Shown piece after piece: positions 206 through 4,589 of a stretch of 4,589 nt of DNA; within the stretch, counting starts at the first letter, position 1, and each line of letters starts with the position of its first letter. The translations under genes were made by a program, and so were the position numbers. The notes under the pieces were generated by a model. The model made no database searches, was not told the origin of the DNA, and was given only the letters and a program-made list of their open reading frames with translations. The DNA comes from a virus (Duplodnaviria; Heunggongvirae; Uroviricota; Caudoviricetes), in the IMG/VR virus record IMGVR_UViG_2724679543_000008, one strand, 5' to 3'.

Positions 206-324
206 AGGTAATTCTCCTCTTGAGAGTTGAGACTATCGGTATCGCAGGCACAGTAAGGCCTACGGGTCTCCCCGCATCGGTCATCTCAAAAGGTGTTTAA
301 ATTAGGTATTGAGTAGGTGAGCTA

Positions 325-501
325 CTAACGGTTAAGCGGCAGTTTCATAGCGACCAGTTGGGCTATTAGCTCGTCTCGGGATTGGTGCTGGCGGGTCTCA
401 TCTTCCGGGTCTAGACCAAGCTCTCTGAGGAGGACTTCAGTCCGGTAGCCACGGTAACGGAGAGTCATGCGCCCCTCAGGTGTGCGCGGGTCAATCATCA
501 T
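325..501 (-). CDS. hypothetical small protein, 58 aa (MMIDPRTPEGRMTLRYRGYRTEVLLRELGLDPEDETRQHQSRDELIAQLVAMKLPLNR)
   Basis: Hand-translated minus-strand ORF, ATG at 501-499, TAG stop at 327-325. The ATG lies 1 nt after the TAA stop of the upstream Rha-like gene (503-505), with a GGAGG SD inside the Rha 3' end, suggesting translational coupling. Absent from the ORF track (below length cut-off). No recognisable domain. Confidence 0.4.
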   Translation of the reverse strand: MMIDPRTPEGRMTLRYRGYRTEVLLRELGLDPEDETRQHQSRDELIAQLVAMKLPLNR

Positions 502-502
502 C

Positions 503-1249
503 TTAGATTCCCTCCACCTTACCGGATTGTGCCAGCTTCAGGAGGTGCTCTTGCTTCTGCTGGTCGGTGCCAGTGAATGCAATAAGGATGCCTCGCATCT
601 TGTCAACCATCTCAGGCTTACCGAAGACCTCCAGCCCCTTAGCGTTGAACCGGAAGTTATACCCACCTGCTGAGAACTTCTGGTCTGACGGCTTAATGAT
701 ACGAAAGCAGTCGGAATACTTCGGATTTACAGACCACTCGTTACTGATTGGGTTCTTACGAAAGAGGCCACGATGCTGGAGAAGTGCGGTCATTAGCTTC
801 TGAGCGGGCAGACCATAGGTTTTGCAGTAGTCGCCCCAAGTCACGCCTCGGCGGTTAGCGGACTGAATGGCTGCTCGCTTCTTCTGGTCTTCCAGTTGAA
901 GGACTCGACGCTCTAACGTCTGAATATGGTCGTAACACTTGGCGCGGAGGTGAACGGAATAGCCAGCGACCAGAATGAAAGTATGCTTACGGTCGAGACG
1001 ATACATTGTTCGGCTCTCACCTTTCGCGTCCTTGTATACTTCCTCGCCAACGAGCCCAAATTTGGACCCGTTAAGCTCGCTGCTCAAAGTTGAGCAGTGC
1101 TCAGTTTTGGCCCCGTTAAGCTCTTCGACCATATTACGAATATCTCGTAAAACGTGTTTATGTTCTTTTCCTGTCAGCTCAGCAATTTCAACTGAGGTCA
1201 TGGACACAAGCTGGTCGAGGTTAATGATGCTGATTTCTTGTTGGGACAT
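503..1249 (-). CDS. Rha-family phage regulatory protein / antirepressor-like protein, 248 aa
   Basis: ORF-track ORF with ATG start. Canonical SD AAGGAG (rc of ctcctt at 1259-1264) 9 nt upstream. N-terminal segment SMTSVEIAELTGKEHKHVLRDIRNM resembles the conserved core of the Rha domain (recalled motif of the form ssrEIAELtGKrHdnVlRDI). C-terminal half is compatible with an antirepressor-type (KilAC/ANT-like) domain, but that is a weaker, memory-based call. Confidence 0.8.
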   Translation of the reverse strand: MSQQEISIINLDQLVSMTSVEIAELTGKEHKHVLRDIRNMVEELNGAKTEHCSTLSSELNGSKFGLVGEEVYKDAKGESRTMYRLDRKHTFILVAGYSVHLRAKCYDHIQTLERRVLQLEDQKKRAAIQSANRRGVTWGDYCKTYGLPAQKLMTALLQHRGLFRKNPISNEWSVNPKYSDCFRIIKPSDQKFSAGGYNFRFNAKGLEVFGKPEMVDKMRGILIAFTGTDQQKQEHLLKLAQSGKVEGI

Positions 1250-1563
1250 TTACGTGTACTCCTTTTGTTTGCACCCTGAAGTCGCACCCCACTGACCTAC
1301 TCAAGCCCCCACGTAAAGGGAGACCAGCAGGCAACAGGACGCAAACAGAATGACTTGAGGTAATTGGGGTTAGTGGTCTGCGATGACCATAGAGATGAAG
1401 GTTCGACAGCATGTCCGAGCGTGTGTGGTGATAGACTTAAGTCACGAGACCAAAGAACACACAGGCTGACCAGAGGCTGTCTTGCCTTAGGCTGGTGGCT
1501 AGCTTGCTAGCGTGGACCACGGTTTCTCGCTTGCCGTCTCTCAGGAGGTCAGAGGCGAGATAT

Positions 1564-1586
1564 GGTCCCTATAGTGATAGTTTAGT
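1564..1586 (-). promoter_or_regulatory. T7-family phage RNAP promoter-like site P1 (-17..+6), predicted +1 G at 1569, transcribing leftward
   Basis: Minus-strand sequence ACTAAACTAT CACTATA G GGACC. Positions -8..+3 (TCACTATAGGG) are identical to the T7 class III consensus TAATACGACTCACTATAGGGAGA; the -17..-9 region diverges. Lies ~320 nt upstream of the Rha-like gene on the same strand. Confidence 0.6.
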
Positions 1587-2124: not shown

Positions 2125-2147
2125 CTCCCCTATAGTGATAGTTAAGG
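2125..2147 (-). promoter_or_regulatory. T7-family phage RNAP promoter-like site P2 (-17..+6), predicted +1 G at 2130
   Basis: Minus-strand sequence CCTTAACTAT CACTATA G GGGAG. Shares a 16-nt identical block with P1 (plus-strand ccctatagtgatagtt). Core -8..+3 identical to T7 consensus. Confidence 0.6.
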
Positions 2148-2152
2148 GTCCA

Positions 2153-2175
2153 TTCCTCTATAGTGAGGTGTATTA
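2153..2175 (-). promoter_or_regulatory. T7-family phage RNAP promoter-like site P3 (-17..+6), predicted +1 G at 2158
   Basis: Minus-strand sequence TAATACACCT CACTATA G AGGAA. Differs from the T7 consensus TAATACGACT CACTATA G GGAGA at -11 (A for G) and -10 (C for A), plus +2 (A for G) and +5/+6 in the initially transcribed region; 19/23 overall. Directly tandem with P2 (start sites 28 bp apart). Confidence 0.65.
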
Positions 2176-2367
2176 TCGCTCAAGCACTGGGCCACATTGA
2201 CACACCACTGACGCCAAAAGCTAACATCAGACTTCTGCGCTCGGCTGCTGGAAGGTAACCTTCAGAAGGCCTGTAACCATTATCAGAAATCTCATGGTCA
2301 ATATGCTTTGCCATTTCAATGTATTTTGCAAGGCGCTCAACAGTTAATCCCCGAAATTGTTCAGAGT

Positions 2368-2787
2368 TTACCGCCAGGACACTTTTGCAATATCGTCTTG
2401 GTTATCCAAATGATCCGCCGAGAAATTAAAGCTCGAAGTATACGAATCGCCGTGAGCAATAGCGTCTCTTACCTCAAGACACTCTTTGATAATTTGGTAA
2501 GGTTTTGTCCCCATATAATTGTTTATACCGCACAATTTTAACGTATTCTTGTGCATTGTCTTTCTGCACTCTTTCTGCGTCTTATCGTAGCCGGGGTCAA
2601 CCTGTTTTCTATAGAAGATGAACATTGCCTCAATAGCAAAAGCAGTAAATATTATACCTGTGCGGCAATGATGCTCACGTTGCCAATCTTCCGAAGCCAT
2701 TCCAGCCAGCCCCAAACAAGTTTCAGCAGTATTCATACATTCATATGAAGGCTTATTTTCTTTGCTAACTAAAAATTCTTTGACCAT
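2368..2787 (-). CDS. hypothetical protein, 139 aa (AT-rich accessory/cargo gene; possible HEPN-like Rx4H motif)
   Basis: ORF-track ORF with ATG start at 2787 and SD-like GAGGA 4 nt upstream. Starts 31 nt downstream of the integrase stop on the same strand. Markedly lower GC than flanking genes (hand count: 23/60 GC in 2521-2580 versus 36/60 in 3421-3480). Contains EVRDAIAHGDSY near the C-terminus, which fits the R-x4-H signature used by HEPN-type RNases, but a single motif is weak evidence. Confidence 0.6.
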   Translation of the reverse strand: MVKEFLVSKENKPSYECMNTAETCLGLAGMASEDWQREHHCRTGIIFTAFAIEAMFIFYRKQVDPGYDKTQKECRKTMHKNTLKLCGINNYMGTKPYQIIKECLEVRDAIAHGDSYTSSFNFSADHLDNQDDIAKVSWR

Positions 2788-2818
2788 TACGTCCTCACAT
2801 TCCGCTATCCCTATGCGA

Positions 2819-4429
2819 TTACTTTCCGTCTATTTTTTTTACTGACAATGACTCCGCTAATTTTTCTTTCAGCGTTTCCACCTCGACCTCTTTCGCGTAA
2901 CGGTCGTAAGTTATAGACCCTGAGCTATGACCCATAATCGCCTGAGCATACGCTAACTCGACCCCATGTTGTTTTAACTGGGTCGCAACTGTATGTCTAA
3001 ACGAGTGAAAAGCTAAGCCGCTACGGTCAGCGAGGACTTTGGGCAGCAACGTTCGGTTAAACCACTTGCTAACCTGCTCACCGTAGCCGTTCTTCATTAG
3101 CTTGAGGCCATTGAACACCATAGCATTATCACCCTCAGTCTTTCTACGGTCTTCCACGAGTGACATAAAGTCAGCCAATACAAAACCATAAGCACCATCT
3201 ACCAACGGGACACAGCGGTCACTGTGGGCGTTCTTGATACTCTTACCCGGCAGGCTGCTATCGTCTTCGTTGATATGGATAAAAACGGTCCCAGCCTCAG
3301 TGGTCCTGACATCTTTAACCTGAAGTTGGGCCACCTCGTTAAGTCTCGCACCTGTAATCGCAGCCAGAGCGGTGACGTAATAATGGTATGGCTTACCTGA
3401 GGTCTTCTGCGAGTACGCTTTAGCTGCGACCAGTAGTTGCCCTACCTGCTCAGGACTGAACGCATCACGAGCGTCGGAGGCTTTACGCTGAGGGACTTTC
3501 AGCTCAAGACCTTCGGTCAGGTTCTTAGCTATCAAGTCGTTGCGTACCGCCCACTTAAACACAGCAGCCATCTTGATAAGATATTTATTGTTAATGGTAA
3601 CGACGTCCAGACAGTCAGTCTTAGACTCCCGGTTCAGCAAGTCAGACAGCGGCATAGACTTAAAGCGTTGCTTGCGGTTCTTCGGTAGCTGCTGGAGGAC
3701 TTCACGAACTCTGAGCATATCTGCACGGGTCGCCTTGCCGACATCCTGAATATCCAGATAGTCGAATATCTCGATTAGCGTAGAGTGTGACGCTCGGTTT
3801 TCGCTTAGGGTCGCTGGCTTCCAGTTCTGGGCGTTCTCCTGCTCGTACTGCTCAATGAGAGACGCGAGGGTCAGTGCTTTAGGTTCAGGGACTTCAGGTT
3901 CCGCCAATACAGATAGGGAGACGGACGGTCTTAGACTGCCAGTCTCAGGCTCAAGGTAAGACAATAGGCCAGAGCTATCGCCATTGAGTCTATCCTGACA
4001 GGCCTTAAGCACACCGATAACGTCATTAATATAGCGATGCTGGTCTACAGTCAGACGCTCGGTCGCTACAGCTTCCCGAAGGTTGGACTTAATGTCATCG
4101 TACTGGTCAACGTAAAGCTGGTAGGACTCCGGGTCGTTCAGGTCATCACGGCTGACACTAAGTTCCCACTCGACAATGGTCTTCAGGTGCTCCCGTAGCT
4201 CCTCATAAGAGGCGTTAGGGTTGTCTGCATGGATTGCTTTAAGTGCTGACTTGATGTGCCGTGAGTGAGCCATAGCGGTACGTCTATCCTTGGTCCGTAA
4301 AGATACTGACGCTAGTTTATAACGGTTGTGAGAAGGAAGCGAAGCGGTCAGGCGACTAGTGGTCTTCATCCTAAGACGGATGTAAAAGACACCATTACGC
4401 TGATAAAGGTAGGTTCTTGACTTGAGCAT
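2819..4429 (-). CDS. int: tyrosine site-specific recombinase (phage-type integrase), 536 aa
   Basis: ORF-track ORF with ATG start and AAGG SD 9 nt upstream. C-terminal catalytic domain carries the recalled tyrosine-recombinase signatures: TGARLNE (box I Arg), HSFRHT (H-x-x-R box II), GHSSGSITYDRY (catalytic Tyr). N-terminus (YLYQRNGVFYIRLR) resembles integrase arm-binding N-termini. Sits immediately downstream of a tRNA 3' end on the same strand, the classic island/prophage arrangement. Confidence 0.9.
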   Translation of the reverse strand: MLKSRTYLYQRNGVFYIRLRMKTTSRLTASLPSHNRYKLASVSLRTKDRRTAMAHSRHIKSALKAIHADNPNASYEELREHLKTIVEWELSVSRDDLNDPESYQLYVDQYDDIKSNLREAVATERLTVDQHRYINDVIGVLKACQDRLNGDSSGLLSYLEPETGSLRPSVSLSVLAEPEVPEPKALTLASLIEQYEQENAQNWKPATLSENRASHSTLIEIFDYLDIQDVGKATRADMLRVREVLQQLPKNRKQRFKSMPLSDLLNRESKTDCLDVVTINNKYLIKMAAVFKWAVRNDLIAKNLTEGLELKVPQRKASDARDAFSPEQVGQLLVAAKAYSQKTSGKPYHYYVTALAAITGARLNEVAQLQVKDVRTTEAGTVFIHINEDDSSLPGKSIKNAHSDRCVPLVDGAYGFVLADFMSLVEDRRKTEGDNAMVFNGLKLMKNGYGEQVSKWFNRTLLPKVLADRSGLAFHSFRHTVATQLKQHGVELAYAQAIMGHSSGSITYDRYAKEVEVETLKEKLAESLSVKKIDGK

Positions 4430-4563
4430 GTACTGAGACCTTAGGTCTGCTCACTACTTCAACAAAGTTAGTCACAGTGTTGGTTACAGTGAGTAAAACT
4501 ATCGGAAGGCGTTAAGCCGTATCCCTTAGGATTCAGTAAGTTAGTAGACTTTAAGAAGTGTCA

Positions 4564-4589
4564 TGGAGCGGGCGAAGGGAATCGAACCC
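4564..4589 (-). tRNA. glyU: tRNA gene, 3' portion only (T-arm, acceptor 3' strand, discriminator, CCA); consistent with tRNA-Gly (CCC, glyU-type); 5' part lies beyond the window edge
   Basis: Minus strand reads GGGTTCGATTCCCTTCGCCCGCTCCA: T-loop TTCGATT, T-stem 3' strand CCCTT, 7-nt acceptor strand CGCCCGC, discriminator T, encoded CCA ending at 4564. This matches my recollection of the 3' end of enterobacterial tRNA-Gly(CCC). The anticodon is outside the window, so the isotype is recalled, not demonstrated. Confidence 0.65.

Follow-up and report, generated by a model that had tools for sequence, protein, structure and literature searches.

A frameshifted gene of an uncharacterised family with a HEPN-like predicted fold, in an integrase-adjacent slot exchanged with RAZR

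What kind of protein is, or was, encoded by the AT-rich gene lying immediately behind the integrase gene in this stretch of DNA (hereafter the window, i.e., 4,589 nt of the IMG/VR virus record IMGVR_UViG_2724679543_000008), and which role could such a cargo gene play there? Many immune systems rely on HEPN RNases as effectors, e.g., Cas13, Csm6, the toxins HepT and RnlA, Tha and RAZR, and most HEPN toxins depend on a partner or on a trigger. What keeps a stand-alone HEPN protein silent, and how phage then switches it on, is currently being investigated. A preliminary description of the window, based on its letters only, pointed to a 139-aa ORF with a HEPN-type motif as possible defence cargo. 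The reading favoured here, to which a probability of about 0.6 is given, is that the cargo is a frameshifted copy of a 202-aa gene belonging to an uncharacterised family of stand-alone HEPN-fold proteins, the intact alleles of which would be phage-triggered RNases and the window copy of which would be dead.

A frameshifted 202-aa gene behind the integrase

The integrase gene and the successive elements of the cargo gene, all carried by the minus strand, are as follows:

2819..4429, minus strand: tyrosine integrase, 536 aa (Phage_integrase, E = 1.6e-18; PHROG 1, E = 4e-45)
2180..2787, minus strand: full cargo gene, encoding a 202-aa HEPN-like protein when intact and carrying a 1-nt deletion here
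2368..2787, minus strand: 139-aa ORF with an ATG start, i.e., residues 1-135 of the real protein followed by VSWR
2383..2386, minus strand: frameshift site, with a coding-strand run of A4 (a T run on the plus strand), against A5 in intact alleles
2368-2370, minus strand: premature stop codon of the 139-aa ORF
2180..2314, minus strand: out-of-frame C-terminal remnant, a 44-aa ORF corresponding to about residues 159-202

As the preliminary description had it, the 139-aa ORF (2368..2787) directly follows the integrase gene, the start codon of the cargo being located 31 nt downstream of the integrase stop codon on the same strand, and the base composition of the block is indeed lower in GC than the integrase and Rha genes, namely 0.415 over 2169-2876 against 0.50 for each of the two genes (and 0.49 for the spacer); in 200-nt windows, GC amounts to 0.39-0.41 over 2301-2900 and to 0.48-0.55 elsewhere. 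The extent of the gene, on the other hand, had to be revised at both ends. The right end had been set at 2820, which reaches into the integrase stop codon, and the ORF regarded as a whole gene turned out to represent only the first two-thirds of a 202-aa gene that spans 2180-2787 and carries a frameshift.

All homologues of the cargo protein are about 200 aa long, among which one of 202 aa (P0001) is 100% identical across the 139-aa ORF. An intact CDS of 609 bp is annotated in Escherichia coli 13E0767 (WP_000237836.1, an accession of which no mention was found in the literature searched), and intact alleles are present in E. coli as well as in E. fergusonii. When aligned with the intact allele L002, the window gene exhibits one gap and two substitutions; as A4 stands where L002 has A5, the final four residues of the 139-aa ORF, i.e., VSWR, are out of frame. 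Beyond the premature stop, the 44-aa remnant still carries most of core helix 4 together with the conserved AFGVSGxSxW tail. An identical 139-aa ORF is found in E. coli ECMA0423 and S. flexneri SFBU1023 (L083 and L084), which points to a real mutation of a lineage and not to a read error of the window alone. Deprived of helix 4 and of the conserved tail, the window copy is most likely a dead pseudogene having lost its function.

Two ORFs of the plus strand, at 2308-2541 and 2551-2748, overlap the cargo gene in antisense. Respective to expression, a consensus scan for a sigma-70 promoter or a terminator of the cargo gene gave nothing above the shuffle background, so that co-transcription with the integrase gene is assumed.

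The R-x4-H motif and the predicted fold

Two features of the coding sequence are relevant to the nature of the protein, namely:

2452..2469, minus strand: codons of R107-D-A-I-A-H112, the R-x4-H signature with invariant R and H
2629..2631, minus strand: codon of E53, the acidic residue of helix 2 (AFxxEA), nearly invariant in alignment A2

The segment EVRDAIAHG, which had been put forward as a fit to the R-x4-6-H signature of HEPN ribonucleases, corresponds to residues 105-113 (R107 codon at 2467-2469 and H112 codon at 2452-2454). Taken alone, such a match is not evidence, since R-x4-6-H turns up in 48% of the sequences obtained by shuffling the 139 aa; it becomes meaningful because R107 and H112 are conserved across 37 divergent homologues. 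In the alignment of these homologues (A2, with a mean column identity of 21%), they constitute the sole invariant columns, and A49, F50 and E53 are nearly invariant (E53 at 90% or more). Across the 22 close homologues, the whole of RDxxAHGD is invariant, including D108, a position mostly occupied by D or N in the rest, and the C-terminal tail AFGVSGxSxW is conserved across the cargo family.

The HEPN fold is an up-down bundle of four helices, the second and third of which are often separated by an insert; the R-x4-6-H motif, usually with a polar residue (N/D/H) after the R, was placed at the end of helix 3 by Anantharaman et al. (2013, PMC3710099). The active site includes an acidic residue of helix 2, and the RNase activity is metal-independent and R/H-dependent (PMC3710099). 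In the cargo family, R107-D108-x3-H112 presents such a polar residue after the R, and the predicted catalytic signature of intact members thus comprises E53 (helix 2) and R107-D108-x3-H112 (end of helix 3). The preliminary description had added that several Cys and His residues could make the protein something else altogether; the 139-aa ORF does contain 6 Cys and 5 His, but these residues are unconserved in the wider family. A Cys/His metal site formed by C17, H40, C86 and C103 was discarded, as these four positions are invariant among the close homologues only and not across A2.

Structure prediction and profile searches had both been suggested as checks of the HEPN assignment. In an AF2 model of the intact protein (pLDDT 79, pTM 0.73), helices span residues 13-30, 34-63, 95-111 and 150-170, the latter at a pLDDT of 94-97, with an inserted helix at 75-85, i.e., the predicted topology is that of a HEPN four-helix bundle, in which R107-H112 falls at the end of helix 95-111 and helix 34-63 carries E53. 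Model confidence is low at residues 115-138, directly after the motif, and the model further shows two strands specific to the family, one N-terminal and one C-terminal (AFGVSGxSxW). The top Foldseek matches in the PDB are HepT toxins, at a probability of 0.97-0.98 with E-values of 0.075 or worse, bearing in mind that four-helix bundles draw non-specific structural matches; against viral structures (BFVD), Foldseek gave no meaningful match. On this model, a HEPN-like fold of the cargo protein is supported, and the original reading of the motif gains strength from an invariant R and H, a HEPN-typical position and a predicted fold matching HEPN proteins first.

The profile searches gave a more divided answer. 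No model of Pfam, NCBIfam, PADLOC or PHROG scored above threshold with either the 139-aa ORF or the full-length protein, the best HEPN family model reaching 15 bits (PF18735) for a cutoff of 28.4, and a sequence search of the PDB with the A1 and A2 profiles returned nothing significant. The sub-threshold matches nonetheless fall on HEPN families: in the Pfam scan of 37 members, 14 member scans matched one of three of them, namely RiboL-PSP (8), MAE_28990 (4, best E = 2e-4) and Cthe_2314 (2), and nearly all the non-HEPN families were matched by one member each. With the window protein, the RiboL-PSP match (PF18735, E = 0.02) covers residues 68-135, i.e., the part bearing the motif; the best match to PF18737 (E = 2e-4) comes from one member only. 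Matches to PADLOC Specificity_I (E = 0.01) and PHROG 14700 (E = 0.008), as well as single odd Pfam matches, were set aside as noise. The RiboL-PSP-HEPN (PF18735), MAE_28990-like (PF18737) and Cthe_2314-like (PF18730) families are the sole Pfam families matched repeatedly, at scores far below the gathering thresholds in every case, but the cargo family has none of the fusions to RiboL-PSP, ParB or methylase that typify them (PMC3710099), nor their typical N-terminal domains.

The exchangeable slot and its island

Besides the integrase and cargo genes, the following features delineate the surroundings of the cargo:

2169..2876, no strand assigned: low-GC exchangeable cassette; homology to the RAZR-bearing E. 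coli island L001 extends up to 2168 and is found again from 2877
2153..2175, minus strand: T7-class promoter-like site #1, TAATACACCTCACTATAGAGGAA, agreeing with about 18 of 23 T7 consensus positions (hand count)
2125..2147, minus strand: predicted T7-class promoter #2, CTTAACTATCACTATAGGGGAGA, K1F/Kayfunavirus type
1564..1586, minus strand: predicted T7-class promoter #3, CTAAACTATCACTATAGGGACCA, K1F/Kayfunavirus type
503..1249, minus strand: Rha/anti-repressor-like regulator (Phage_pRha, E = 1.5e-18; PHROG 10324, E = 2.6e-62)

Besides the cargo gene and the upstream half of promoter #1, the cassette includes the stop codon of the integrase gene together with the ~18 sense codons before it. 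As it holds one gene only, a hidden partner or antitoxin within it was dismissed for want of room. In E. coli islands, both flanks are present at about 93-96% identity, with a different gene in the block 2169-2876; as such, the separate acquisition first suspected from base composition finds its counterpart in a low-GC block coinciding with a cassette swapped between islands with shared flanks.

The anti-T7 gene PD-T7-4/RAZR, which was found by functional selection in 2022 and "often overlaps an integrase gene" (Vassallo et al., 2022, PMC9519451), is a proven anti-phage HEPN RNase activated by phage (Zhang et al., 2026, PMC13017515). It occupies the slot in 10 of 21 sister islands with a homologous integrase, plus L001, which agrees with the earlier expectation that integrase-adjacent slots carry defence cargo. 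RAZR/PD-T7-4 stands at the identical position in L001, L085, L086, L088, L090-L093, L099 and L101; the PADLOC model PD-T7-4 matches the slot occupants of L001, L086 and L092, the three of these islands on which PADLOC was run, at E-values from 1e-102 to 4e-97, and the RAZR of L001 carries R146/H154 as published. In L100, the slot occupant is a non-HEPN lipoprotein of 104 aa, and slot occupancy alone is therefore no proof of defence.

The two exchanged cassettes have much in common, namely a single gene of about 200-220 aa, stand-alone and without partner, a core of HEPN type in which R and H are conserved, and a location directly after or overlapping a homologous integrase gene and directly before tandem T7-class promoters. 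This likeness is positional, the slot being shared by analogy and not by homology, as hhalign of A2 against a RAZR alignment gave a probability of 1% and homology between the two was accordingly rejected. P0001 has no match to PADLOC PD-T7-4 or to DUF4145. While RAZR possesses an N-terminal Cys4 zinc ribbon and a C-terminal DUF4145, the cargo family has no zinc ribbon but N- and C-terminal strands of its own and an insert at 115-138, and the motif spacing is R-x4-H in the cargo family against R146-x7-H154 in RAZR.

The island amounts to ~6 kb and is located at a tRNA-Gly adjoining the integrase gene, with every island gene on one strand and no phage RNA polymerase gene in those ~6 kb. The window itself contains no complete tRNA; the sole Rfam match, sub-threshold and tmRNA-like, lies at the edge of the window and corresponds to the 3' end of the tRNA-Gly. 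The promoter core CACTATAG occurs in three copies, all on the minus strand and within 600 nt, against 0.15 expected. Site #1 begins a few nt past the cargo stop codon. The 16-mer AACTATCACTATAGGG is repeated several times per genome in Kayfunavirus contigs of ~40 kb, and #2 and #3 match the Kayfunavirus promoter 16-mer; the exact 16-mer of #1 was not found in phage contigs, so that #1 appears as the weakest of the three and may be degenerate. The gene that comes first downstream of the tandem promoters is Rha, which belongs to the island backbone. In the spacer, a 34-aa mini-ORF (1665-1769) with a strong Shine-Dalgarno was discounted, being broken in L085 and deprived of its start in L086, as was a conserved leader hairpin before Rha, the folding of which is no better than that of shuffles (z = -0.7).

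In 2006, Chen and Schneider reportedly described, by bioinformatics, small enterobacterial islands located by a tRNA gene, with a tyrosine integrase, T7-class promoters in tandem (two or three) and reportedly no phage RNA polymerase gene. The element surrounding the window fits, with predicted tandem T7-like promoters, a tyrosine integrase, a tRNA-Gly and no RNA polymerase gene; the work of 2006 came before HEPN and RAZR defence genes were recognised. The literature search retrieved no paper linking T7-like promoters with satellites.

The cargo family is not confined to this setting. In P0019, P0011 and L098, members occupy the same integrase-to-promoter slot in islands that differ in their integrases and in the types of their T7-class promoters. 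Members are also found outside T7-promoter islands, in defence clusters with TIR, pP_pnuc, HEPN_LA2681, putAbiC, Abi_C and SIR2.

Candidate role of the intact alleles

Intact alleles are most likely phage-triggered abortive-infection RNases. The intact protein would be made in an inactive state, and a phage component would trigger its assembly or dimerisation, from which a composite R/H active site would arise; the active form would then cut RNA without metal and shut down translation, with the infection aborting as a result. Tha, as described in PMC11087260, is a tail-activated single-gene HEPN defence of S. aureus prophages, which a phage structural protein switches from a silent to an active state. 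By this description, it is similarly a HEPN effector borne by a mobile element, with the logic proposed here for the cargo family, but it belongs to another host phylum and another element.

More tentatively, this reading may be extended to a family that would be a new single-gene anti-phage system, functionally interchangeable with RAZR but responding to a different phage cue, in a slot that would serve as a dedicated exchange site for HEPN effectors. This slot would be bounded by the conserved 3' end of the integrase gene and the conserved promoter core, and the islands would be multi-specific traps or satellites of T7-like phages, where an incoming phage would switch the island on by its own polymerase, thanks to promoter arrays read by several different phage RNA polymerases.

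It is also conceivable, if rather improbable, that the HEPN RNase serves the island as a satellite of T7-like phages by interfering with or processing helper-phage transcripts, in which case it might degrade phage late mRNAs or process the long transcripts that phage RNA polymerase would produce from the tandem promoters, thereby favouring replication and packaging of the island. In four island variants, the cargo gene abuts what look like T7-class promoters of several specificities, most islands of the type carry a HEPN gene of some family, and with the island genes on one strand, phage-polymerase transcripts would in an excised circle run on into the integrase and cargo genes. However, a plasmid bearing RAZR, the common occupant of the slot, and nothing else of the island suffices to protect E. 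coli (PMC13017515), and the 202-aa family also occurs in ordinary defence clusters outside such islands.

Unlikely as well is a toxin of a HepT/MntA-kind pair, the antitoxin being unrecognised or encoded elsewhere, which would mainly stabilise the island by addiction rather than defend against phage. The HepT toxins (e.g., PDB 5yep, 7bxo, 7ae2 and 8xdj) are the closest structural matches, but the cargo family is about 70 residues longer, and its motif R-D-x3-H-G-D/K differs from the R-x4-H-x-Y of HepT toxins. In MntA-HepT, the antitoxin gene is adjacent, whereas no MNT nucleotidyltransferase neighbour was found in the six contexts examined, and the one-gene cassette leaves 31 nt before the start codon and a few nt between the stop codon and the promoter-like site.

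There is likewise little likelihood that the protein, though of HEPN fold, is no nuclease but an adaptor that binds a ligand or another protein, or that it is incidental cargo outside phage conflict. The family is tiny, with 42 cluster representatives found among 1.84 billion, and mostly restricted to Enterobacterales, and some HEPN families are non-catalytic, but the domains of these typically lose R-x4-6-H (PMC3710099). In the cargo family, on the contrary, R and H are the very residues that never vary, the accessory D and E are retained and defence-type neighbourhoods are recurrent.

Least probable is a 139-aa product functioning as a short HEPN variant, or a full-length one restored by ribosomal or transcriptional slippage at the A run. 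Helices 1-3 and the R-x4-H motif are retained and at least two complete genomes have preserved the allele, but core helix 4 and the family-conserved C-terminal motif are removed, the A4 run is short where known slippage sites are far longer, no X XXY YYZ heptamer is present, and further truncated fragments of the cargo gene occur in Shigella (P0013 and P0017), as decay predicts.

For the window, the practical upshot is that the cargo gene is best annotated as a pseudogene. For the family, the phage-triggered reading of the intact alleles concerns a compact, unannotated and previously undescribed family of stand-alone HEPN proteins. Its context joins the tandem T7-promoter islands of 2006 with the PD-T7-4/RAZR of 2022, and a link between the integrase-proximal slot, RAZR and the cargo family was not found in the RAZR/PD-T7-4 literature (PMC13017515; PMC9519451). 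As the family swaps with RAZR cassette for cassette, the two offer a natural comparison, i.e., the same slot, the same likely enemy and a different sensor.

A frameshifted gene behind the integrase

The window features on which the analysis bears are listed below, the T7-class promoter-like sites pointing leftwards and sharing the core CACTATAG.

Features of the window
2819-4429, minus strand, tyrosine integrase of 536 aa
2368-2787, minus strand, 139-aa ORF
2180-2314, minus strand, 44-aa ORF, i.e., the true C-terminus of the cargo protein, out of frame (from alignment with the intact locus)
2153-2175, minus strand, promoter-like site 1
2125-2147, minus strand, promoter-like site 2
1564-1586, minus strand, promoter-like site 3
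503-1249, minus strand, Rha/anti-repressor gene

The preliminary description was accurate as to the 139-aa ORF, its EVRDAIAHG segment (residues 105-113) and its low GC content. A GAGG ribosome-binding site precedes the ORF, which starts 31 nt past the integrase stop. GC falls to 0.39-0.41 across 2301-2900, with 0.415 for the block 2169-2876 vs 0.50 for both integrase and Rha and 0.49 for the spacer. Since 48% of shuffled versions of the ORF contain R-x4-6-H, a match to this motif is by itself of small value.

As a cargo gene, the ORF exists but is only a fragment. The 25 homologues found are all about 200 aa long, and the best of them (P0001, Escherichia fergusonii) has 202 aa and is 100% identical across the ORF. 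Aligned with an intact locus, the window is short of one A where that locus has A5 (plus-strand T run 2383-2386), differs otherwise by just two substitutions, and past residue 135 reads VSWR-stop; the 139-aa ORF is a pseudogene fragment, the observation itself being real. The identical frameshifted allele is carried by E. coli ECMA0423 and Shigella flexneri SFBU1023, the integrases of which are 100% identical to that of the window, and other truncated fragments occur in Shigella (P0013, P0017). The cassette is rare, being present in 14 of the 5426 complete genomes of E. coli, ten of which have an annotated intact 609-bp gene (e.g., WP_000237836.1).

An exchange cassette and its occupants

At the shared tRNA-Gly/actS site, E. 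coli islands are 93-96% identical to the window across 63-2168 and 2877-4589 and carry unrelated DNA between 2168 and 2877, in agreement with the earlier proposal of separate acquisition. This DNA encodes a 219-aa zinc-ribbon and DUF4145 protein (Pfam E 1.5e-13), namely PD-T7-4, or RAZR (PADLOC E 1.3e-102), with R146 and H154, the reported catalytic residues of RAZR (PMC13017515). RAZR is a HEPN RNase that aborts infection by T3, T7 and others, its assembly taking place on rings of phage portal or recombinase (PMC13017515), and according to Vassallo et al. PD-T7-4 "often overlaps an integrase gene" (PMC9519451). The slot was surveyed at 21 Enterobacterales loci with homologous integrases; the earlier suggestion of a defence slot is borne out.

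Occupants of the slot at 21 loci
RAZR-type (zinc ribbon + DUF4145): 10/21, plus a truncated RAZR-like ORF in L089
202-aa family: 3/21, two frameshifted and one intact in Kluyvera
192-aa protein without family match: 1/21 (L087)
104-aa lipoprotein: 1/21 (L100)
No recognisable ORF, or slot unexamined owing to a truncated integrase match: 5/21

Because slot contents vary among islands with homologous integrases, the low-GC block, which takes in the integrase's last ~18 sense codons and stop codon, is on sequence comparison a one-gene exchange cassette. Its breakpoints lie inside promoter 1, at the conserved core (2168/2169), and ~55 nt inside the integrase 3' end (2876/2877), so that an integrase tail and the upstream half of a promoter come with each cargo; as the left boundary (2168) falls inside promoter 1, the sequences suggest exchange by recombination between promoter core and integrase 3' end. 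In RAZR islands, integrase end and cargo start overlap. Although RAZR occupies the slot that in the window island holds the 202-aa family, hhalign found no homology between the two, so their likeness is one of functional analogy by position.

The 192-aa protein of Citrobacter sp. Awk 4 (L087 7597-8175), without Pfam or PADLOC family match, has its own R-x4-H (INARGAEEHT) and could represent a third HEPN-like cargo type, though a single motif is weak evidence. The Rha region of the window (295-1567) is 93% identical to RAZR-bearing E. coli islands; cargo and integrase are 99% identical to the E. fergusonii/E. coli 13E0767 type (L002/L104), in which another gene, of 166 aa, stands where the window has Rha. 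By sequence, the window is a mosaic.

The 202-aa proteins as a candidate HEPN family

None of the curated models (Pfam, PHROGs, PADLOC, NCBIfam) captures the 202-aa family: PHROGs, PADLOC and NCBIfam gave nothing credible, and the sole Pfam match of the cargo protein, RiboL-PSP-HEPN, is not significant (E 0.02, 15 bits vs a cutoff of 28.4), leaving no significant profile match to a HEPN family model. Searched exhaustively with the profile, 1.84 billion cluster representatives yielded just 42 relatives at E <=0.001. In the alignment of 37 of these (mean column identity 21%), only R107 and H112 are invariant, while A49, F50 and E53 are nearly so; the 22 closer homologues all share R-D-x-x-A-H-G-D. 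When each of the 37 members was run separately against Pfam, sub-threshold matches were to RiboL-PSP-HEPN (eight members), MAE_28990-HEPN (four, best E 2e-4) and Cthe_2314-HEPN (two), nearly all other families being matched by one member each.

The HEPN signature described by Anantharaman et al. comprises R-x4-6-H with a polar residue following R and a conserved acidic residue in helix 2, with an insert frequent between helices 2 and 3 (PMC3710099). The AlphaFold model (pLDDT 79, pTM 0.73) has helices at 13-30, 34-63, 75-85 (short), 95-111 and 150-170, with E53 in the second core helix and R107-H112 at the end of the third, and the best Foldseek matches are HepT toxins (probability 0.97-0.98), with weak E-values. 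From conservation and predicted fold, we conclude that the 202-aa proteins probably make up a small family new to the HEPN superfamily, its catalytic signature apparently intact. The earlier reading as HEPN protein and defence cargo is thus supported by conservation, by the predicted fold and by analogy of the slot.

Lost through the truncation are the fourth core helix of the model (150-170, pLDDT 94-97) and the family-wide conserved C-terminal strand AFGVSGxSxW, predicted to pair with the N-terminal strand. Given these losses, and as an A4 run is an implausible slippage site, the window copy is most likely non-functional.

A promoter island and the proposed role

The core CACTATAG occurs three times on the minus strand (2158-2165, 2130-2137, 1569-1576) vs 0.15 expected. 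Promoter 1 begins a few nt past the cargo stop; promoters 2 and 3 include the K1F/Kayfunavirus-type 16-mer AACTATCACTATAGGG, of which ~40-kb phage contigs identified as Kayfunavirus (K1F-like; phage ST31, vB_EcoP_F) each have several copies, all on one strand. Sister islands have promoters of other specificities, mixed in some (arrays read at L092 8246-8376, L085 8252-8885, L106 6715-6750 and L077 7620-8352): Klebsiella pneumoniae ATCC 13883 has the exact K11 consensus AATTAGGGCACACTATAGGGAGA 27 nt from the exact T7 consensus TAATACGACTCACTATAGGGAGA, L106 a T7 consensus promoter, L077 T3/T7-hybrid promoters, and Citrobacter T3-like and K1F-like promoters in one array. To judge from these sequences, the islands seem made for responding to several T7-like phages.

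The promoters face a conserved 900 bp without ORFs, followed by Rha, and have the cargo behind them, so that in an integrated island they would not drive the HEPN gene. The ~900 bp (1250-2150), without conserved ORF or Rfam match, are 82-98% conserved across 440-900 nt in sister islands, and the ~100 nt ahead of Rha (about 1250-1355) are conserved even with a different downstream gene (Bro-N and others); a hairpin predicted before the Rha start is no better than in shuffles. The region might be a T7-type origin (tandem promoters and spacer), an RNase III site or a leader.

Nucleotides 1-61 are an IS element end, inverted relative to the rest, so that in the source genome the island is cut at position 62. 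The same IS end adjoins promoter 3 (window 1571-1581) in E. coli ECMA0423 and S. flexneri SFBU1023 (L083/L084 8860-10105). At the other end, 4564-4589 is the tRNA-Gly 3' end, the attachment site of the island, with actS/ygeR and the ETT2 region as its neighbours in E. coli; this tRNA end explains a sub-threshold tmRNA-like Rfam match at 4561-4589.

Elsewhere, P0011 (Hafnia/E. coli) and P0019 sit equivalently at different chromosomal sites, behind integrases of other kinds, and a 700-940-bp stretch without ORFs follows each of them. The cluster that holds P0023 (Brenneria) is borne by an ICE and also encodes a TIR protein, a pP_pnuc nuclease and a HEPN_LA2681 protein, and P0021 (Enterobacter) lies among putAbiC, protein kinase, Abi_C and SIR2 genes. 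These neighbourhoods support a putative role in conflict with phages. The island variant carrying P0019 (L077 9288-10841) encodes on the opposite strand a 517-aa reverse transcriptase (RVT_1), which may be a second defence gene of retron, DRT or Abi type.

We favour, with a probability of about 0.6, the reading that intact alleles are stand-alone HEPN RNases, which would be triggered by phage and act through abortive infection, by analogy with RAZR and Tha, the window copy being dead. Chen & Schneider (2006) reportedly described islands with tandem T7-like promoters, of which we take the window element to be one, and proposed a satellite hypothesis; that the intact protein is an RNase serving such a satellite seems unlikely. 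A toxin with an unseen antitoxin is more doubtful, as no MNT-type antitoxin adjoins a family member in any context looked at. Outside the T7-promoter islands (L076 6637-6975; L080 6301-6963), a small same-strand gene lies 25-37 nt ahead of family members, encoding a CdiI_2 immunity-like protein in Brenneria (Pfam E 3.8e-10) and a 220-aa protein in Enterobacter, possibly partners or antitoxins there. A non-catalytic HEPN protein or incidental cargo is equally doubtful, set against the conserved R107 and H112, and a functional truncated or slippage product, deprived of helix 150-170 and the C-terminal strand, is highly improbable. The RAZR-equivalent slot and the T7-promoter island setting raise the importance of the finding, which we consider moderate, and the frameshift lowers it.
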